Positions 28,473-53,672 of a DNA stretch of 64,000 nucleotides are shown here, piece by piece. Source of the stretch: Candidatus Saccharimonadales bacterium (GTDB lineage Bacteria; Patescibacteriota; Saccharimonadia; Saccharimonadales; OMJO01); contig DATIID010000001.1 in NCBI GenBank assembly GCA_035480035.1, forward strand, positions 73,323 to 137,322, in the 5' to 3' direction. The stretch's first letter is position 1. Each line of letters starts with the position of its first letter. A program made the position numbers and the translations under genes. The notes below the pieces were generated by a model. It was not told the origin of the DNA. It was given only the letters and a program-made list of their open reading frames with translations, and did not search any database.

Positions 28473-28846
28473 ACGCTACGCAAAGTTCCTTAACAATTCA
28501 GATTAGAGTAGTAAACCAAAAGTAGAATGACTCGAGGTTAGCTATTCGGCAGTCAACAAGTGGTATTTAGGGTAACCACTTTAAAAACCCTCGTACCTTA
28601 CACTAAAAAACACCTCCCAAAACTCCACCTCACACATAAGTCTCTCAAACTTTGATCTTAGCCGGTGAAAGAAGTTCTCAAAATAAAAACTTCTCTCGCA
28701 TTAACGGATAAGATCACCATTCGCTCCCAAGCGAATAAACAAAAACAAAAACACCAAAAAAACAAAAAGTTGGCTGCTGAATAGGTGACCTTGCAAAAAC
28801 AAAAATAGGCCGAGTCAAATTTCCAATTTGATGAAGCCAAAAATGC
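28473..28846 (+). other. 374-nt G-poor, C/A-rich spacer between mraZ and rsmH
   Basis: Runs such as CAAAAACAAAAACACCAAAAAAACAAAAAG. Small hairpins TTCGCTcccaAGCGAA and CAAATTtccAATTTG. No credible ORF. Confidence 0.5.
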
Positions 28847-36454: not shown

Positions 36455-36885
36455 GTGTAACTGCAAGTGTAACCACCATAACAGGGTACTATCTGAACCA
36501 TAACGTTTTTATATGCTTGTGTCAGTCATCGTTTTGTTAAGACGAGTATGGTTTGGTTAAAACTTTAAAGTTTGAAGTCCCAGCTACTCCACTCTCCCCC
36601 GAAGTTCGTATTTTGTTCATATATTATCAGATCTTTTATAAAACGAAAAAACTATATTAGCATAGTAAAGTAGGGCAATGTCAAATATTGATAATTAAAC
36701 AAGCAAGGGCAGTAAAAATATATAAAACATCAAAACACGAAAAAGCAAATGTTTTCACGGGCTAGCTGTGGAAAACTTTACAATGAATAGTTAGCCGTAT
36801 AGCTAGGTAGTCGCTACAGTAAATAAAGATAACTACACGGACTGGAGAATTGAATAGTTAACATTAATATCAATATATTTAAAAT

Positions 36886-37040
36886 CTCCCCTGTAGTAGA
36901 GGTATAACTAATTAAACCATAAGCCAGATATAACAGTCGCAAAATATACATTGTACGACGTACGATGGATATGTTGATTGTGCTCTACTACACACATGGC
37001 GGCCGGTCCCACGGCCCAATTTTATTTTAAATTTTGTTTT
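36886..37040 (+). ncRNA. Candidate ~150-nt small RNA (speculative)
   Basis: TTGAAT (36850-36855), 18 nt, TATATT (36874-36879). A perfect 10-bp closing helix 36892-36901/36983-36992. GC hairpin GGCCG/CGGCC (37001-37016) followed by a T-rich run. Confidence 0.25.
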
Positions 37041-37145
37041 AGCTGTCTACTCTACTTGTTAGTTAGGCATATTTATATAACCCGTTAATAATCACATAAA
37101 TAATATATAGTTCGCAAAATGTTTAGTAGTCAATAACTTAGTCAC

Positions 37146-37176
37146 AAAAAAAAGCGGGACCCTGATTGGATCCCGC
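37146..37176 (-). terminator. Rho-independent terminator of the small TM-protein gene
   Basis: On the - strand: GCGGGATCC, aatca, GGGTCCCGC (9-bp stem) followed by T8. Confidence 0.8.
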
Positions 37177-37198
37177 CAGCTAAAATGCAAAGATTGTT

Positions 37199-37432
37199 TT
37201 AAAACTGTTCAATGGTCAGGGCTGGTTTATTCGTCGAGGTGGTAACTTTTGGGTTACTTACCTGCTTTGGCAAAACTACAACTGTTGTTCGGCTATGACT
37301 AATTACTTCAGGATGACGACTTGTGTAGTAATACATGCCACTAATGCCTAAACCAAGACCCACCAACAGCCCACAAACCATATCAAACATGGTTAACTTA
37401 CGTGGTTTAGAGATATTACTTATTAGTTCCAT
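37199..37432 (-). CDS. Small single-pass membrane protein (77 aa)
   Basis: One TM (MVCGLLVGLGLGISGMYYY). Own strong promoter and terminator. Confidence 0.55.
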   Translation of the reverse strand: MELISNISKPRKLTMFDMVCGLLVGLGLGISGMYYYTSRHPEVISHSRTTVVVLPKQVSNPKVTTSTNKPALTIEQF

Positions 37433-37455
37433 AACACTTCCCTGTTACAGGACAT

Positions 37456-37485
37456 ATTATAACATAAGCATTAGCTCAATGTCAA
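37456..37485 (-). promoter_or_regulatory. Near-consensus sigma70-type promoter for the 77-aa gene
   Basis: - strand: TTGACA (37485-37480), 18 nt, TATAAT (37461-37456). Lies just downstream of the stop codon (37489-37491) of the upstream sigma-like gene. Confidence 0.6.
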
Positions 37486-37488
37486 TAT

Positions 37489-44462: not shown

Positions 44463-44666
44463 TTAGAGCTGTGATAATTTATAACCGGCCCAAACACCCA
44501 CAAATCCGCCAAGTGTGCCGGCCACAATACCCCAGAGGCCGAAAAAATTACCATGATCAAACAAACTACCAATCCAGCTACCGGCGGTGGAGCCGACAAA
44601 AATGCCAACATAGATAAGTGATTTAGCACCCATGCTAGCGATTATACTACTTATGCCAATCGCCAA
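44463..44666 (-). CDS. Small glycine-zipper membrane protein (GlsB/YeaQ/YmgE-like)
   Basis: 67 aa, two Gly-rich TM helices (GIFVGSTAGSWIGS, GIVAGTLGGFVGVWAG). Overlaps the dprA stop by 16 nt. Confidence 0.6.
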   Translation of the reverse strand: MAIGISSIIASMGAKSLIYVGIFVGSTAGSWIGSLFDHGNFFGLWGIVAGTLGGFVGVWAGYKLSQL

Positions 44667-45508
44667 TTACCGGCACCGAGTGGCTTAATCTTGCCAGTGA
44701 TTTCCAGCATACTCAGGGTTTGATTGAAAGCTGGGATGGCAAGCTGACTCTTGATTTGCAGTTCAGCACTATCAGTTATGCCTTGTCTAAGCTGGGCTAA
44801 AATCGCTTCCTCATGTTCATTGGCGCCTTGGATTGACCTGGTTACACGAGTCGAGACCAGTCCCATGGCCATTAATACATCGTCAGTCGAGGTTACTGGT
44901 ATAGCGCCTGCTTTGATTAAATTATTAGTACCCTGACTTGTTAGACTGGTAATGTTTCCGGGTACCGCCATAACTGTCCGGCCTTGGTCAAGGGCAAAAT
45001 TGGCGGTGTGTAAGCTACCGCTCTTTTCAGCCGCTTCCGTGATTAATACCGCATCGCTGAGTCCTGAAATAATCCGATTGCGAGCAATAAACTGATAACC
45101 GAGTGGTTCAGTCTCCTCTGGGTATTCACTAATAATTACTCCACCACTTTGTAGAATTCGGTTAGCTAAATGATAGTGTGATTTAGGATAAATTCGCTCA
45201 ACACCACATGCTAGTACGGCTACCGTACAGCCATCGGCGTCTAATGCTGCCTGATGGGCAATGCTGTCGATCCCCAGTGCTAAACCACTAATGATTACAA
45301 TTCCTCGACTGGCTAAATCACTAACAATTTTTATGGTTACAGCTCGGCCGTAAGGGCTGGCTTTGCGACTGCCGACCACTGCTAGTCGGGGCAAATTGGC
45401 AAAGTTTTCTAAATTACCACGGTAAAATAGTTGTTTCGGTGGATTAGCGATATGTCTAAATTCAGTTGGTAAAAACTTCGAATTAAGCTTTAGCGTATTG
45501 ACAATCAT
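44651..45508 (-). CDS. dprA: DNA processing protein DprA (Smf)
   Basis: Rossmann-like core AVVGSRKASPYG...ISGLALGIDSIAHQAAL...GSLHTANFALDQGR. Confidence 0.9.
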   Translation of the reverse strand: MIVNTLKLNSKFLPTEFRHIANPPKQLFYRGNLENFANLPRLAVVGSRKASPYGRAVTIKIVSDLASRGIVIISGLALGIDSIAHQAALDADGCTVAVLACGVERIYPKSHYHLANRILQSGGVIISEYPEETEPLGYQFIARNRIISGLSDAVLITEAAEKSGSLHTANFALDQGRTVMAVPGNITSLTSQGTNNLIKAGAIPVTSTDDVLMAMGLVSTRVTRSIQGANEHEEAILAQLRQGITDSAELQIKSQLAIPAFNQTLSMLEITGKIKPLGAGNWRLA

Positions 45509-45527
45509 TTACAATTATTAAGTGGTA

Positions 45528-45556
45528 TTGACATAATGAAACATATTTGCTAAAAT
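45528..45556 (+). promoter_or_regulatory. Near-consensus promoter driving the candidate ncRNA
   Basis: TTGACA (45528-45533), 17 nt, TAAAAT (45551-45556). Confidence 0.6.
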
Positions 45557-45562
45557 TGCAAT

Positions 45563-45931
45563 TCGTAAATCCATGTTAGTGGATTTTATGTACCTTATAC
45601 CCATTCTAACTCTTCTCACGTCCGCGTGAGAAGCAACGTTAGATTGTTTTAGAGCGTGCTATCTAAGTTGTTACCCTCCACTTTTCTAGCTAGCTGGTTT
45701 GACCAGCAGCGTTCTAAAACAAACTAACCCCTTTAAGACACCCCATATAGCGTTTACGCAGTATGGTGGTTCACTTCGGTGGGCCGATAGTGCGAGTCCC
45801 AAAGATTCCTGCCACTAGTGGCGGGAGGCACATCACTTAATTTGATTATGGTGTTTGATGCTTCGCCGGGTGGGCTTGAAGGGTGTAAAAGGTCTCCAGC
45901 GGTGCCCACCCCCTCTGGAGACCTTTTAGAT
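45563..45931 (+). ncRNA. Candidate ~370-nt highly structured non-coding RNA, family unknown
   Basis: No ORF of 60 aa or more on either strand. At least 6 hand-foldable helices, including a 19-position long-range helix and a C(UUCG)G tetraloop hairpin. Bounded by a strong promoter and an intrinsic terminator. Confidence 0.5.
45887..45931 (+). terminator. Intrinsic terminator of the candidate ncRNA
   Basis: GGTCTCCAG (45891-45899) pairs with CTGGAGACC (45915-45923), extendable by A4/T4. 15-nt loop, followed by TTTTAGATTTT. Confidence 0.8.
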
Positions 45932-45969
45932 TTTACAGATTATTAAATAGATGTTAGAGTATCCTACGC

Positions 45970-46719
45970 ATGTCAGAAATTATTACCGAACAACCAACTC
46001 GGCTTTTAGCCGAAGATTATTATCAAAATCCTGAACAATTTAAGATAAACCGGCCATTGCACCTTTTGGCCCGTAAAGTGTTATTGCCATCGATGGCTGT
46101 ATTGCATGGTCGAACTAATGTCTTAGCTCCCGAAACCAACCTCGCTGAACTTGAAAAACCAGTCGTTATCGCGGCGACGCACCGCTCTTGGGAAGATATT
46201 CCCCGCACCGTGGCTGCCACGCGCGAGGTCGGCCTAAGGCCAATCCGATTTGTTTTTAAAGCTGAACTAAATAAACCACGAGCCTTGGGCTACTTATTTG
46301 AGAAATTGGGTGGTGTGGCGGTTGAACGCCATGAACCAGATACTGGCGGACTGTTTAAAGTCCTTGGCGGTTTCTTAGATGAAGGCGATAATGTCGCGAT
46401 CTATCCTGAAGCAACTCGCAAACGTGAAGACGTTCGGCGGCTTGGCGAGTTAAAACCTGGTGCTTCAGTCTTAGCTGGCCGACGCAACTTGCCAATGGTG
46501 CCATTAGCAATTGCCGGTATGGCGGACGGCGAGCACCCAACCATGCGAGGCCGAATGCCAGTAGTGGCGGTCTTTGGTGAACCAATTACCCGTGAGGTAG
46601 CCGGTTCAGTCAAAGAGATGCAAGCGGCTCTCGAAATCAGCCTCCAGAACTGTCTGGATGAGGCTTACGAACAACGCGAACTCTACAGCAGTGACTTTAT
46701 TCAAAAAATTGGGGTGTAA
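45970..46719 (+). CDS. plsC: 1-acyl-sn-glycerol-3-phosphate acyltransferase family (PlsC-like)
   Basis: HX4D motif ATHRSWEDIP and block III YPEATRKR. TGtTAGAGT -10 (45952-45960) lies 9 nt before the ATG. Confidence 0.85.
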   Translation: MSEIITEQPTRLLAEDYYQNPEQFKINRPLHLLARKVLLPSMAVLHGRTNVLAPETNLAELEKPVVIAATHRSWEDIPRTVAATREVGLRPIRFVFKAELNKPRALGYLFEKLGGVAVERHEPDTGGLFKVLGGFLDEGDNVAIYPEATRKREDVRRLGELKPGASVLAGRRNLPMVPLAIAGMADGEHPTMRGRMPVVAVFGEPITREVAGSVKEMQAALEISLQNCLDEAYEQRELYSSDFIQKIGV

Positions 46720-46728
46720 TATAAAACT

Positions 46729-47058
46729 ATGCAAGCCGATAAAGAACTTGGAGTTTTTTACTTGACCAGTAGCGAAGCTCTCTTGATTGATGTCGACCAA
46801 AAACGAACCGTCCGACCGATTCGCGAAGCCTATGACATTGCCAATGATGCTTTGTTAGCATTAACGTTATATAGCGCTTATTGCCCACAGGAAATGTATC
46901 CTGAACAACCGGCTCTACGTCAATTTGCTGAAGAAAACCGCCATCGTAGCATTCGATTAGCTCAAGGGATTTTAAAAGCCGCGGAAGTTGAAATTGACTG
47001 GGAATCAGCTCAGGAGCGGTTGGTTAGTACTTTCGAAGCCTATATAAGTGATAAATGA
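46729..47058 (+). CDS. Hypothetical protein (109 aa)
   Basis: ORF only. TAATAT (46717-46722) lies 6 nt before the ATG. Confidence 0.5.
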   Translation: MQADKELGVFYLTSSEALLIDVDQKRTVRPIREAYDIANDALLALTLYSAYCPQEMYPEQPALRQFAEENRHRSIRLAQGILKAAEVEIDWESAQERLVSTFEAYISDK

Positions 47059-47128
47059 CCAAGTGTCGGCTTAGGCGTTGTTATACGATTGAAATTATCA
47101 GACAATCCAATTCCCTAATCTAGTAACT

Positions 47129-47137
47129 TTATCCACA
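47129..47137 (+). promoter_or_regulatory. Perfect DnaA-box 9-mer upstream of paralog copy 4
   Basis: TTATCCACA on the + strand, same orientation relative to the gene as at copy 3. Confidence 0.3.
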
Positions 47138-47215
47138 ACTGGCGTTAATCAGCTTGATAGTTCTACATTTTTGTAATTAAGGGTATAGTCAATGTATAAC
47201 CTTAAAGGAAAACAA

Positions 47216-47776
47216 ATGACTAAAACTACAAATAAACGCAAAACTTCTGTCGGACAGAAGTTATTAAGTGCTGTAAAACCAGGTAGCGTGAAGAGTGGAG
47301 CGTTGCTTTTTATGCTTGCCTTTGCGGTTATTGGTGGCAGCTACATGCTTTTTCGCAGTTATGCGGCCACCGAAATCGTTAAACAAGCTTGGGCGGATAA
47401 TGCTCCCAACCTAATCAAGCTAAGCAGCGGTTCGGCAGTTAAGCAAACTGATCCTGTTGGCGGCGCGCCATCTACTAAGGCTTGGCGACTGAAGCGTAAT
47501 GCAATAGTTTATGCTGAGTACAATTATCCGAGCAAAACCCCCCCCAGCAATATCAAATTTTGTGTATATTCCAGGTTCCCGTTGGTCAACCCCAGAAATG
47601 AGTTTCTTATATATGGCTGGCTCAAGTTCCAGGCTGGTAGCAAGAAATATCAAGAACAATGTTATCGGCCGACAAAGTTTTTGATCAAAAATGGCAATCG
47701 AATTGGATTTGAAGTCCAAAATTACGGTCCTGGCGATATGTTCATCTTGTATATGGCGTTCAAGTACACCTTATAA
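47216..47776 (+). CDS. Secreted protein, diverged fourth member of the paralog family
   Basis: Same N-terminal layout (MTKTTNKRK..., TM, RSYAAT) and conserved Cys spacing (KFCVYSR ... EQCYRP). Start moved to ATG 47216 (AAAGGAAAA SD) because TATAGT 47184-47189 sits 2 nt from the tracked ATG 47192. Confidence 0.55.
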   Translation: MTKTTNKRKTSVGQKLLSAVKPGSVKSGALLFMLAFAVIGGSYMLFRSYAATEIVKQAWADNAPNLIKLSSGSAVKQTDPVGGAPSTKAWRLKRNAIVYAEYNYPSKTPPSNIKFCVYSRFPLVNPRNEFLIYGWLKFQAGSKKYQEQCYRPTKFLIKNGNRIGFEVQNYGPGDMFILYMAFKYTL

Positions 47777-52888: not shown

Positions 52889-52992
52889 TTATGGTTTATT
52901 ATCGGTGTTTTAGGGTTAATTTACAACTGTGCCGTCTGGACTTGCCACCCCTGTCATGCTAGTATTACGCCGTTAATGGTTGTGTAAAAGCT

Positions 52993-53069
52993 GGCCCCGT
53001 CGTCTAGCGGTTCAGGATATCTGGTTCTCATCCAGAAGATCGCGGGTTCGAATCCCGCCGGGGTCACCA
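52993..53069 (+). tRNA. tRNA-Glu (anticodon CUC), CCA encoded
   Basis: Cloverleaf by hand: acceptor GGCCCCG/CGGGGTC (one GU), D-arm GTCTAGCGGTTCAGGA, anticodon stem TCTGG/CCAGA with loop TTCTCAT, T-arm GCGGGTTCGAATCCCGC, discriminator A plus CCA. Confidence 0.93.
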
Positions 53070-53090
53070 AAGTTCGCTATAATAAGTTTA

Positions 53091-53672
53091 ATGAAAAATT
53101 TTATTAAGAAATACATCAATGTTTTTTTAGTGGTGCTACTAGTTAGCTTCATCTATAGTTCGATTTACACTACTGCTCAGCAGGTCTTAAGAATGGACGC
53201 CAATGACCCTCAGATTCAGATGGCCGAGGACACTGCCGCCAAACTCGATGAACACTTCAAGCCCCAAGCTTTAACTGGCCGATATATTGACGTGGGTCGT
53301 AGCCTAGCACCATTCATTATCATTTACGACAAATCTGGCGAAGTTGTGGCTGGTTCTGGCTATTTGGATAACCGAGTGCCGAAAGTCCCTCTTGGGGTTC
53401 TTAAGCACTCTGAAAATAAGACAAATGGCAACCGGGTAACTTGGCAACTGAGCGGTAATGTCCGCATTGCTTCAGTGACTGTAGCGACACGTCATTATTA
53501 TGTGTTAGCCGGTCGTAATCTACGTGAAGTTGAAAACCGCGCGAACGACGTCTTAAAGATGGTGACCTTTAGCTGGATTATTTCTCTACTGACTGTTGGT
53601 GTATTTTATAAACTTAAAATTCACCCTGACATTCCTGAAAAGAAACTATCGAAGAATTTGCACAAGCGGTAG
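53091..53672 (+). CDS. Hypothetical bitopic membrane protein
   Basis: The tracked ORF (52980) runs through the tRNA. The in-frame ATG 53091 is preceded by TATAAT (53078-53083) plus 7 nt. TM helices at both ends. Confidence 0.55.
   Translation: MKNFIKKYINVFLVVLLVSFIYSSIYTTAQQVLRMDANDPQIQMAEDTAAKLDEHFKPQALTGRYIDVGRSLAPFIIIYDKSGEVVAGSGYLDNRVPKVPLGVLKHSENKTNGNRVTWQLSGNVRIASVTVATRHYYVLAGRNLREVENRANDVLKMVTFSWIISLLTVGVFYKLKIHPDIPEKKLSKNLHKR

Follow-up and report, generated by a model that had tools for sequence, protein, structure and literature searches.

A stand-alone structured RNA gene conserved among Saccharibacteria, possibly encoding a ribonucleoprotein core

A structured RNA gene between dprA and plsC

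The window analysed here is a 64,000-nucleotide stretch of DNA from a Candidatus Saccharimonadales bacterium. It contains a non-coding gap (45509-45969) between dprA and an acyltransferase (plsC) gene, and this gap holds a stand-alone gene for a non-coding structured RNA of ~365 nt. The existence of the gene is demonstrated by its promoter, terminator, fold and conservation, without expression data. The features of the locus, in window coordinates, are as follows.

44651-45508, - strand: dprA (Pfam DNA_processg_A, 6e-76)
45528-45556, + strand: promoter, with -35 box TTGACA (45528-33), 17-nt spacer and extended -10 box TGcTAAAAT (45548-56)
45563-45934, + strand: predicted transcript, ~365-372 nt
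45567-45586, + strand: hairpin P1 (45567-73/45580-86)
45590-45610, + strand: J1/2, a conserved single strand, G(U/C)ACCUUAUACCC(CC)AUUCUAAC
45612-45633, + strand: optional hairpin P2, 9 bp with a UCCG loop (45612-20/45625-33)
45638-45728, + strand: P3 arm, built on a 19-position duplex (45638-56/45710-28)
45665-45684, + strand: 20-nt loop AAGUUGUUACCCUCCACUUU at the top of P3, invariant in the alignment of homologues
45729-45737, + strand: 5' strand of P4, CCCUUUAAG, pairing with 45875-83
45738-45867, + strand: variable central domain closed by P4, containing hairpin 45768-85, P5, P6 and P7
45792-94/45864-66, + strand: P5
45807-14/45819-26, + strand: P6
~45828-37/45852-61, + strand: P7
45868-45883, + strand: G-tract GGGUGGG (45868-74), then the 3' strand of P4, CUUGAAGGG (45875-83)
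45887-45934, + strand: terminal hairpin, a bidirectional intrinsic terminator with A-tract, 10-bp stem (45890-99/45915-24), 17-nt loop and U-run
45970-46719, + strand: plsC-like acyltransferase gene (PF01553)

The promoter scores 11/12, with the extended TG present before the -10 hexamer (TAAAAT, 45551-56) and an A/T-rich flank upstream. The transcript start is inferred from the -10 box and its end from the U-run; neither end has been mapped experimentally. In the core of the terminator stem, GGTCTCCAG (45891-99) pairs with CTGGAGACC (45915-23), flanked by A4 and TTTTAGATTTT. An automatic terminator scanner missed this element solely because of its 8-nt loop limit, and the terminator was read directly from the sequence. 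The predicted fold of the window RNA has a minimum free energy of -143 kcal/mol. Its z-score is -8.33 on the + strand compared with -6.45 on the - strand, and none of 100 shuffled sequences folds as well.

Coding potential was rejected for this locus. The longest open reading frame in the gap encodes 51 aa, homologues do not preserve the ATGs at 45573 and 45588, and the conserved blocks show all nine combinations of relative frame about equally often, leaving no conserved reading frame. No second copy or repeat of the RNA was found within the window.

A sequence-only reading of the locus had described an independent promoter-to-terminator RNA of unknown family rather than a leader, and this description is now supported on stronger evidence than was available to it. 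The TTGACA-17 nt-TAAAAT promoter, the strong terminator (45891-45899/45915-45923), the absence of any frame of 60 codons or more from the gap and a separate -10 box for plsC (45952-45960) after the terminator all held. The 18-codon frame from 45573, named there as a possible functional product that would refute an RNA gene, is ruled out by its varying ATGs and the random frames of conserved blocks. The RNA was also called abundant, which remains an inference from promoter quality.

Distribution and genomic context

Homologues were retrieved with an exact 18-mer from the RNA against GTDB species genomes, which returned at least 120 loci. Near full-length nhmmer matches, with E-values down to 4e-64 and with promoter and terminator, were obtained in 114 of these 120. 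The relatives that the sequence-only reading had suggested looking for thus exist, and they preserve the entire unit. All retrieved loci belong to Saccharibacteria, as judged by name or by flanking genes. Retrieval by an exact 18-mer biases both this distribution and the apparent invariance of the block containing it, so Saccharibacteria are not shown to be the sole carriers. Viral contigs gave one chance 18-mer hit without homology.

Each fetched 8-kb locus has one exact 18-mer match and one full-length nhmmer match, including those from two complete chromosomes (L033, L054); the complete genomes in the data set are CP064992.1 and OY970322.1. The usual gene order is topA<-dprA<-[RNA->]<-pth<-der. 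Among 99 loci compared, dprA lies upstream of the RNA in 78, and pth is convergent with or adjacent to it in 69. The promoter-RNA-terminator unit is a single-copy element at the same chromosomal position, between dprA-topA and convergent pth-der, in at least 114 genomes. The homologues identified through synteny retain the promoter, the long invariant blocks and compensating changes in hairpins, in a setting where PlsC is only 45-55% identical. Apart from topA, dprA, pth and der, the flanks carry only small variable genes.

The 99 loci lack the consistently placed, coherent downstream gene that a riboswitch or other cis leader would have. Since the gene that follows in the window, plsC, occupies this position in only three of the 99 and the usual neighbor is convergent pth, the RNA is not a plsC leader.

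Both boundaries of the gene are conserved. The promoter consensus is TATTGACA-N17-TGCTAAAAT, a block retained in 98 homologues. Homologues are 323-479 nt long when counted from 5 nt downstream of the -10 box to a point ~14 nt beyond the terminator stem. The terminator stem is paired in 95% of cases across homologues and has two-sided changes at nine of its ten pairs. It is followed by 5-8 U within 9 nt in 92 of 96 sequences. The 17-nt terminal loop (GCGGUGCCCACCCCCUC in homologue numbering; window 45899-45915) is identical in 82 of the 96 and differs by one base in the other 14. In the window copy, the closing G and C of this loop form the innermost stem pair.

One idea raised by Logan contigs that break inside the terminator, namely that the RNA is part of a mobile element, was rejected. 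The breakpoints (45554, 45610 and 45892-45919) coincide with k-mers common to several species.

Conserved structure

The consensus structure combines ~85 nucleotides that are invariant outside the variable hairpins with a periphery that changes between lineages. P1 has a conserved base, GUAAG/YUUAC, and inner pairs that covary, such that six of seven pairs change on both sides. The J1/2 strand that follows is conserved across homologues, and its UCUAAC repeats the 3' strand of lower P3. P2 is absent from roughly one third to one half of homologues (22-33 of 45 alignment rows are gapped).

The P3 arm carries an invariant A-A mismatch (45643/45723) within its long duplex, inside which lie a short variable hairpin, the invariant loop and hairpin P3b (45693-98/45702-07). 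Its cells are paired in 93% of cases, and five pairs change on both sides, for example from U-A to A-U in L079 and from U-A to C-G in L026 and L061. G-U pairs in P3 and in other helices would be A-C mismatches on the opposite strand, which places the RNA on the + strand. The invariance of AAGUUGUUACCCUCCACUUU is partly a product of construction, because the retrieval 18-mer lies inside this loop; the loop is also identical in L005 and L007, both of which were found through synteny.

P4 is a conserved long-range helix (CCCUUUAA/UUGAAGGG) that is 99% paired. CCC/GGG is replaced by CUC/GAG in L026 and L061, and the pair 45737/45875 is G-C in the window and C-G in most homologues. The central domain closed by P4 has at least two architectures across homologues, of which type B occurs in L070, L092, L079, L095, L097, L055 and L049. 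Within it, P5 and P6 change on both sides at all of their pairs (3/3 and 8/8, respectively), and P7 is likewise supported by covariation.

Most helices drawn by hand in the sequence-only reading survive this comparison. Those at 45567-73/45580-86, 45612-20/45625-33, 45638-56/45710-28, 45693-98/45702-07 and 45807-14/45819-26 are supported by homologues. A sixth (45768-74/45779-85) exists in the window, but the part of the central domain around it varies between lineages. The seventh (45861-64/45878-81) failed: it has no support, and 45875-83 pairs instead with 45729-37 to form P4, where changes are compensatory.

Two further proposals were examined and discarded. A helix between the 5' and 3' ends, UUAUAC/GUGUAA, has uncompensated changes in five sequences and is absent where an insertion hairpin follows P4. 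What looked like a duplicated 3' hairpin in L007 proved to be a large optional hairpin inserted ahead of the true terminal one, and not an att-like repeat. L056 also shows an apparent duplication of this hairpin, and the reinterpretation rests on L007 alone.

Covariation and potential pseudoknots

A covariation test of the kind proposed in the sequence-only reading was run on homologue alignments, and the helices do covary. The pairs with highest mutual information are Watson-Crick partners within the proposed helices. In alignment A2, 80.4% of cells are paired, compared with 74.0% in shuffles. The covariation score of this alignment is 0.206 against 0.114 in shuffles, none of 500 shuffles reaches 0.206, and slid controls give at most 0.131. 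P1, P3, P4, P5, P6, P7 and the terminator stem are thus maintained by compensatory changes.

The terminal loop is complementary to two other conserved strands. Its GGUGC can pair with GYACC (45590-94) near the 5' end, with all five pairs possible in 95 of 96 sequences and U-G alternating with C-G; RNAalifold independently proposes the same pairing. Its (G)CCCACCC is complementary to the G-tract GGGUGGG(C), and 93 of 96 homologues preserve the core of this match, GGUGGG with CCCACC. The sequence-only reading had noted that the 45869-45875 region is complementary to the terminator loop and could form a pseudoknot or an alternative fold; the complementarity is real. In L014, L066 and L115, GGUCGAG stands in place of the G-tract and the terminal loop is retained.

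These complementarities suggest that the loop might engage in a double pseudoknot with GYACC and the G-tract. Two-sided covariation is not available for either interaction because the bases involved are invariant. A metagenome scan for loop variants (AGYGGTGCCCBCCCCCTC), aimed at finding such covariation, was uninformative: none of its 120 hits was matched by nhmmer, and the 40 contexts shown were all unrelated GC-rich DNA.

Relationship to known RNA classes

Searches with Rfam 15, which the sequence-only reading had also suggested, found no family. No match to the RNA reached the gathering score in a scan of the whole window or of eight homologue loci, and none appeared at E<=10 or E<=5 in the window region (45450-46000, relaxed filters, E<=10) or in seven further loci, making 15 homologue loci in all. 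Low-threshold matches on the RNA are hairpin noise only (mir-927 and mir-355 on P3). A literature search of incomplete coverage yielded no description of this RNA, which does not exclude one elsewhere.

RNase P, tmRNA and SRP signatures, which the sequence-only reading had reported missing, are indeed lacking by Rfam, ARAGORN and inspection. Neither RF00010 nor RF00011 matches the window copy or the 15 homologue loci, even at E<=10, and neither the CR-I string GGAAAGUCC nor the CR-V string ACAGAA..GGCUUA, nor a close variant, occurs in the window RNA or the family consensus. Diverged CPR RNase P RNAs can escape default thresholds and are still found with RF00010 (PMC8172020). ARAGORN finds only tRNA-Glu in the window and no tmRNA. 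The tRNA-like domain of tmRNA (acceptor stem, T-arm, CCA end) is absent, there is no T-loop, and the 3' end is a terminator hairpin. Similarly, no conserved frame could serve as a tag frame ending in ..AA stop, and the central domain varies in both length and architecture. The idea that ACCCUCCA is the 3' acceptor strand of a tmRNA-like domain, with U70/A73, was rejected because neither a 5' strand to match it nor a T-arm is present; GAAGGGU, its only near-complement, is taken up by covarying P4. For SRP domain IV (GNRA loop, GGAA-AGCAGC motif), there is no model match and the motif is absent from the consensus.

Other classes were compared as well. The minimum free energy and consensus structures are multi-branched with long-range helices, without the rod and central bubble of 6S RNA, and RF00013 does not match; for 6S RNA, this bears on fold and model similarity but not on binding to RNA polymerase. 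A proposed mimicry of 5S rRNA (loop resembling helix II/III, CCCAUUCUAAC resembling loop C) was rejected as chance-level similarity: alignments to E. coli and B. subtilis 5S are no better than shuffled (fraction of shuffles at least as good, 0.29-0.89), and RF00001 does not match. No T-box was seen in the sequence-only reading, and no riboswitch family matches in Rfam. A resemblance to sgRNA/tracrRNA (GUUUUAGAGC...AAGUU) was dismissed, since an effector gene is lacking and P3 closes with a perfect partner strand of its own. Guide RNAs of the Cas9, IscB or TnpB (omega RNA) kind are further disfavored by the absence of effectors from the flanks, the lack of HEARO or tracrRNA model matches, and a 5' strand that is invariant rather than a variable guide.

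The orphan large RNAs OLE, raiA, ROOL and GOLLD are all represented in Rfam 15, and none of them matches. What they share with this RNA is general character alone, namely large size, conservation, pseudoknots (here predicted) and an unknown function. OLE RNA of Firmicutes is a large, lineage-restricted, single-copy 'ornate' RNA with invariant junction nucleotides, thought to be a ribonucleoprotein core with a housekeeping or stress role, and in these respects it is like the Saccharibacteria RNA. It differs in length (~610 nt versus ~365 nt) and phylum, and the Saccharibacteria unit has no Rfam similarity to it, lacks an adjacent partner gene such as oapA, and is defined by its own near-consensus promoter and terminator. 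The raiA motif RNA of Firmicutes and Actinobacteria is similarly stand-alone, pseudoknotted, highly conserved, strongly covarying and of unknown function. However, it is ~200 nt long and usually lies upstream of raiA, whereas the RNA described here has a dprA/pth context, another architecture and no Rfam match.

RNase P RNA and tmRNA share with this RNA a length of ~330-460 nt, one copy per genome, a strong promoter, long-range pseudoknots (predicted in this RNA) and a conserved core with variable periphery, but their defining signatures are absent here, and models and ARAGORN are negative. 6S and Ms1 RNAs likewise have constitutive genes of an abundant type with no conserved downstream gene, and Ms1 is lineage-specific and ~300 nt long. 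Unlike them, the fold predicted here is multi-domain and pseudoknotted, with no long rod containing an open-promoter-like bubble, and no RF00013-clan model matches. RoxS/RsaE C-rich sRNAs are comparable in that several conserved C-rich single-stranded motifs are present, one with CCUCC. The Saccharibacteria RNA is three to four times longer and far more structured and conserved, in a genome that seems to have few Shine-Dalgarno sites.

Proposed role

On balance, we favor the view that this is a new, uncatalogued, stand-alone non-coding RNA family found across Saccharibacteria and acting in trans as a housekeeping RNA, probably as the core of a ribonucleoprotein (estimated probability ~0.55). 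Its biochemical role is an inference, made without data on expression, transcript ends or essentiality, and no protein or RNA partner has been identified. Likewise, calling it 'abundant', 'stable' or 'housekeeping' relies on the quality of its promoter, its conservation and its single-copy synteny. The Saccharibacteria (TM7), which are ultrasmall and live as episymbionts, have lost most biosynthetic capacity and have genomes of ~0.7-1.2 Mb. An RNA that keeps a single copy at one position, ~85 invariant bases and a consensus promoter in such reduced genomes must presumably do something important.

According to this model, the RNA would be made constitutively, would be stable, and would be comparable in status to OLE or raiA RNAs rather than a cis-regulator. 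The 17-nt terminal loop would be a structural hub that pairs GGUGC with the 5' GYACC and CCCACC(CC) with the G-tract beside P4. The resulting double pseudoknot would hold the two ends of the RNA and its central domain together as a compact core that resists nucleases. The hairpins that differ between lineages (P2, the central domain and the optional pre-terminator hairpin) would decorate the outside of this core, and the long P3 arm would display AAGUUGUUACCCUCCACUUU as a recognition surface.

A bolder version of the proposal is also possible. The RNA might be a further unrecognized essential housekeeping RNA beside rRNA, tRNA, RNase P, tmRNA and SRP RNA, forming the catalytic or organizing core of a lineage-specific ribonucleoprotein. 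A link to translation is conceivable because of the constant pth-der neighborhood and an invariant loop that resembles an anti-Shine-Dalgarno sequence. Alternatively, the RNA might self-assemble into an RNA-only particle through loop-to-strand pairings.

Alternative explanations

The RNA could be a base-pairing regulator of the RoxS/RsaE type, although this seems unlikely. Its invariant C-rich strands, UACCCCCA, UUACCCUCCAC and GCCCACCCCC, would base-pair with G-rich targets, either ribosome-binding sites or other RNAs, to control their translation or stability. Loop ACCCUCCACUUU resembles the 16S anti-Shine-Dalgarno tail and contains CCUCC. There are four conserved C-rich segments for one or two G-rich segments within the RNA, so some C-tracts must stay free. 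Predicted L2 duplexes are slightly stronger for translation-initiation regions than for gene interiors (-6.14 versus -5.45 kcal/mol). However, the margin is narrow, and for the terminal loop it runs the other way (-6.91 versus -7.49). Shine-Dalgarno motifs are only weakly enriched in the window (-4.84 versus -4.10 kcal/mol with a 16S anti-SD probe), and leaderless starts look common, as a TATAAT-like box lies 6-10 nt ahead of the start codon in at least seven window genes. It would also be unusual for a base-pairing sRNA to reach ~330-460 nt and to combine ~85 invariant positions with pseudoknots and multi-helix junctions that covary.

A large ribozyme or ligand-sensing RNA, in which the invariant junctions and double pseudoknot would form an active site or pocket rather than a protein scaffold, is similarly doubtful. 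The many invariant nucleotides in junctions and loops, the compact pseudoknotted fold that is predicted, and the combination of fixed core and swappable periphery are in its favor. Against it, Rfam reveals no ribozyme or riboswitch similarity, the genomic context suggests no reaction or ligand, and the RNA is not upstream of a conserved gene.

There is little to recommend a highly diverged universal RNA (RNase P RNA, tmRNA, SRP RNA or a 6S/Ms1-like RNA that binds RNA polymerase) missed by existing models. Size, single copy, strong promoter and conserved core with variable periphery all fit universal housekeeping RNAs, and default thresholds can fail for CPR RNase P RNAs, as mentioned above (PMC8172020). 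Moreover, 6S has no conserved sequence, so that a functional analogue cannot be excluded by sequence. Nevertheless, the RNase P, tmRNA, SRP and 6S models find nothing at E<=10 in the window copy and 15 homologue loci, ARAGORN is negative, and the RNase P strings, tRNA-like acceptor and T-arm, tag frame, SRP motif and central-bubble rod are all lacking.

Local regulation of dprA (competence), by promoter occlusion or by antisense pairing with dprA transcripts, is also very improbable. The RNA promoter lies ~20 nt from the dprA start codon in the window, and the dprA ATG is a fixed 13 nt from the conserved promoter block in most loci. With a TAATAAT box 6 nt before its ATG, dprA is apparently leaderless, which makes the two promoters overlap. 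However, about one fifth of loci carry the RNA without adjacent dprA and have orf67 or topA as neighbor instead (for example, L106, L124, L125, L096 and L084). Promoter interference also requires neither a covarying structure of more than 300 nt nor an invariant terminator loop.

Finally, it is all but ruled out that the locus encodes a small protein or serves the plsC-like gene as a cis leader or riboswitch. In the window, the RNA does precede plsC in the same orientation, and short frames of up to 51 aa exist, but plsC follows it in so few loci (3/99), a terminator and a separate -10 box precede plsC, frame starts are unconserved and the frames of conserved blocks are evenly distributed.

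The first ~45 bp overlap the divergent dprA promoter region. Because of this overlap, part of the conservation on the 5' side could operate at the DNA level.

New large structured RNAs that span a phylum are rare, and RNase P, tmRNA, OLE, raiA and ROOL/GOLLD RNAs each led to new biology. Culture and genetic manipulation of Saccharibacteria are now feasible (PMC10187176), which makes the function of the proposed housekeeping RNA directly testable. A model of the family merits addition to RNA family databases, and the RNA would be a useful marker for mis-binned or mislabeled Saccharibacteria contigs in MAGs.

A structured RNA gene between dprA and plsC

The structured non-coding RNA studied here (~365 nt; window 45528-45934 with its promoter, plus strand) lies in an intergenic gap with the following features.

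Features of the locus
44651-45508, minus strand: dprA (Pfam DNA_processg_A, 6e-76)
45509-45969: gap between dprA and the PlsC-type acyltransferase gene
45528-45556, plus strand: promoter TTGACA-17-TAAAAT, score 11/12, extended TG
45891-45899/45915-45923, plus strand: terminator hairpin GGTCTCCAG/CTGGAGACC, flanked by AAAA and TTTTAGATTTT, read from the sequence
45970-46719, plus strand: PlsC-type acyltransferase gene (PF01553)

The sequence-only reading had proposed this promoter, this terminator and a gap without long ORFs, and all three claims held; the longest ORF in the gap is no more than 51 aa. The terminator scanner skipped the hairpin solely because its loop limit is 8 nt. The 371-nt stretch has a minimum free energy (MFE) of -143 kcal/mol; its z-scores are -8.33 (plus strand) and -6.45 (minus strand), and none of 100 dinucleotide shuffles reaches this stability. 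No second copy of the RNA was found within the 64-kb window.

Distribution of homologues

PlsC has few relatives. The order dprA-gap-plsC is the same in contigs encoding PlsC proteins of 55% (L005/L006) and 45% (L007) identity. Alignment to the window shows that these gaps share the promoter and long stretches of invariant sequence; the intervening hairpins differ by compensating substitutions. Some 300 extra nt separate the RNA terminator from plsC in one of these contigs (L005:2700-3000). They contain a hairpin region rich in GC, together with another terminator-like element (..CACCCTCTGGAGGTCCTTTTT) similar to the 3' half of the terminal hairpin of the RNA.

A scan with the invariant 18-mer GTTGTTACCCTCCACTTT against one genome per GTDB species returned at least 120 loci. 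When 120 of these are searched by nhmmer with the window RNA, 114 give a match over nearly its whole length, promoter through terminator (E 4e-64 to ~1e-12), so that the search of related genomes suggested by the sequence-only reading recovers the full unit in 114 loci. Each carries one match, loci from two complete chromosomes included. The remaining six are chance 18-mer matches in unrelated phyla. Because the loci were retrieved with it, the 18-mer is necessarily invariant among them, and genomes carrying a different version of it are unsampled; the other conserved blocks were not selected for in retrieval.

Three matching contigs are labelled Bacillota (L024, DATIJU010000014.1), Sulfotelmatobacter (L059) and Dormiibacterota (L023). 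The flanks of L024 and L059 carry Saccharibacteria-like topA/dprA/pth/der, 54-70% identical to the window proteins, and these two contigs are probably mis-binned or mis-labelled; the L023 flanks were not included. The RNA may serve as a lineage marker.

Short-read Logan contigs of the organism from SRR9179559-62 (L002-L004, L131-L134) repeatedly end within the best-conserved parts of the RNA, at window 45554, 45610 and 45892-45919. The simplest explanation is that k-mers common to co-occurring Saccharibacteria species break the assembly graph, and the idea of a mobile element was rejected.

Genomic context

Among 99 full-length loci, dprA lies divergently upstream of the RNA in 78; in most of these, precisely 13 nt separate its start codon from the conserved promoter block. 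Beyond dprA are topA and a 67-aa membrane-like ORF (orf67). Downstream, pth and then der follow on the opposite strand in 69 of the 99, pth often abutting the terminator. This layout places the RNA on the plus strand within a minus-strand string (der, pth, dprA, orf67, topA). The gene plsC is downstream in just three of the 99 loci. No conserved gene has the RNA as its leader, and its earlier description as an independent RNA held.

The interval from the RNA to pth spans 0-3.3 kb and holds variable genes. Because its content varies and pth abuts the terminator in many genomes, it looks like a local hot spot of gene gain and loss. Its window counterpart (45935-47770) contains plsC, a 109-aa ORF and a 194-aa ORF without a Pfam or NCBIfam match. 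Since a conserved A-tract precedes the terminal hairpin and a U-tract follows it, this hairpin could plausibly terminate both the RNA and pth. On the other side (window 45509-45545), a -10-like box for dprA, TAATAAT on the minus strand, lies just upstream of the RNA's -35 element; the divergent promoters therefore overlap and may exclude each other.

A small conserved peptide, which would have refuted the sequence-only reading, was looked for and rejected. The ATGs vary across homologues, that of the proposed mini-ORF included, and the relative frames of three central conserved blocks spread evenly over all nine classes. An apparent peptide, 'LLDCFR...LLPSTF...LKQTNPFN', is a translation of conserved RNA blocks.

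Secondary structure and covariation

Mutual information with average-product correction was calculated for 98 distinct full-length sequences (345-526 nt with promoter; 323-479 nt from after the -10 box to past the terminator). The top-ranked pairs are Watson-Crick partners of the proposed helices. They include 45891/45923 and 45897/45917 of the terminator stem, the latter being CG in 45 sequences, GC in 33, UA in 11 and AU in 6. In an alignment of 45 sequences, 80.4% of the cells of the proposed structure are paired (shuffles: 74.0%). The covariation score reaches 0.206 against 0.114 for shuffles; none of 500 shuffles attains it and all slid controls score 0.131 or less. Covariation supports the helices listed next.

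Covariation of the proposed helices
P1: 6/7 pairs change on both sides
P3 (long arm): 5 pairs change on both sides, among them U-A to A-U in L079 and U-A to C-G in L026/L061
P4 (encloses the central domain), 45729-37/45875-83: CCC/GGG to CUC/GAG; closing pair G-C or C-G
P5: 3/3 pairs change on both sides
P6: 8/8 pairs change on both sides
Terminator stem: 9/10 pairs change on both sides

G-U pairs are frequent and would turn into A-C mismatches if the opposite strand were transcribed, which assigns the RNA to the plus strand. P2 is optional, as is the hairpin separating P4 from the terminator, and the central domain has at least two architectures. In L007:2145-2337 the latter hairpin has grown into an insertion of ~150 nt, with GGGGACAUCC/GGAUGUCCCC as its closing strands, so large insertions are tolerated at this site. 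In L056, nhmmer likewise gives a second match to the terminal hairpin.

Constant core and putative pseudoknots

Elements of the constant core
Single strand: G(U/C)ACCUUAUACCCCCAUUCUAAC
P3: sequence-conserved, with an invariant A-A mismatch
20-nt loop at the top of P3: AAGUUGUUACCCUCCACUUU
P4, 45729-37/45875-83: constant across the family
G-tract: GGGGUGGG
17-nt terminator loop: GCGGUGCCCACCCCCUC, identical in 82/96 sequences, one base different in 14/96

RNAalifold independently pairs GYACC (45590-94) with GGUGC (45901-05) of the terminator loop. Of 96 sequences, 95 preserve these base pairs, and GUACC (42) and GCACC (52) both pair with the invariant G. Complementarity between the G-tract and the terminator loop, noticed in the original reading, also held: a 6-bp core with CCCACCC is kept in 93 of 96. 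The related sequences L014, L066 and L115 have GGUCGAG in place of the G-tract and extend P4 instead. Two-sided covariation is missing at both contacts, as their bases are invariant. A metagenome scan for loop variants returned 120 sequences; nhmmer matched none of them to the RNA, and those inspected lay in unrelated GC-rich DNA. Given the missing covariation, the G-tract exceptions and a variant scan that brought up no homologue, the two pseudoknots are inferred and remain a model. Together they would use nearly the whole loop, tying the 5' strand, central domain and 3' hairpin together. The 5' strand also contains UCUAAC, a repeat of the sequence on the 3' side of lower P3, which could alternatively form a local hairpin with GUUAGA.

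Comparison with known RNA families

At gathering score, Rfam 15 matches tRNA-Glu alone in the whole 64 kb. With relaxed filters (E<=10, 45450-46000) only microRNA-like hairpin noise appears, on the long P3 helix. Homologues have no match in eight loci (gathering score) or seven further loci (E<=5). Thus, the Rfam search, another check proposed at the outset, matched no known family to the window copy or 15 homologue loci. Of the signatures originally reported missing, the following are indeed absent: CR-I/CR-V of RNase P RNA, the tRNA-like domain and tag frame of tmRNA, which ARAGORN did not find either, and domain IV of SRP RNA. Diverged CPR RNase P RNAs are still recovered with RF00010 at low threshold (PMC8172020), whereas RF00010 fails on this RNA. 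The 6S-type rod is lacking, and likeness of segments to 5S rRNA is at chance level. A Cas9-repeat likeness of the string GUUUUAGAGC was rejected, as no effector gene is present and P3 pairs with a partner strand of its own. The 18-mer also hits one viral contig, without homology to the RNA. No published description was found in the full-text literature searched, whose coverage is incomplete. With no Rfam 15 match and the defining features of the tested families unmet, this RNA is judged to represent a new family, whose function can only be inferred.

Possible functions

The gene is constitutive-looking, single-copy, syntenic and strongly constrained, with a fixed core and swappable periphery. 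Such a combination is typical of the RNAs of housekeeping ribonucleoproteins and of 'ornate' orphans such as OLE and raiA. On this analogy, a stable trans-acting RNA forming a ribonucleoprotein core is modestly favoured (probability ~0.55). Its recognition surfaces would be the P3 loop, which is invariant, and further C-rich strands.

RoxS-like pairing with ribosome-binding sites is possible with weak support. Several window genes look leaderless (TATAAT-like box 6-10 nt before ATG), Shine-Dalgarno enrichment in the window is slight, and predicted duplex energies are barely different between gene starts and gene interiors. The overlapping promoters may affect dprA as a side effect; in roughly one locus in five the RNA is present with no dprA next to it. 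A ribozyme, an RNA-polymerase-binding analogue of 6S/Ms1 and a self-assembling RNA particle cannot be ruled out.

Other features of the window

Leaderless-looking starts occur at no fewer than seven ORFs of >=100 aa (for example, 5035, 6143, 13164(-), 14455, 20909, 26303, 45508(-) and 45970). Their upstream TATAAT-like boxes and lack of a Shine-Dalgarno motif suggest that leaderless mRNAs are frequent; AAGGA-type motifs are weakly enriched at window gene starts. A 374-nt A/C-rich intergenic gap (28473-28846, plus strand) has several local hairpins and an MFE z of -6.7 (plus strand, 25 mononucleotide shuffles), probably inflated by skewed composition; Rfam at E<=10 gives only noise there. The ~1-kb gap at 36455-37488 has no ORF of >=100 aa, a GC content of 0.34-0.37 and no notable fold signal. 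The sole Rfam or ARAGORN match in the window, tRNA-Glu (CUC), lies at 52993-53069, and the 230-aa TTG ORF overlapping it (52980-53672) is probably spurious.
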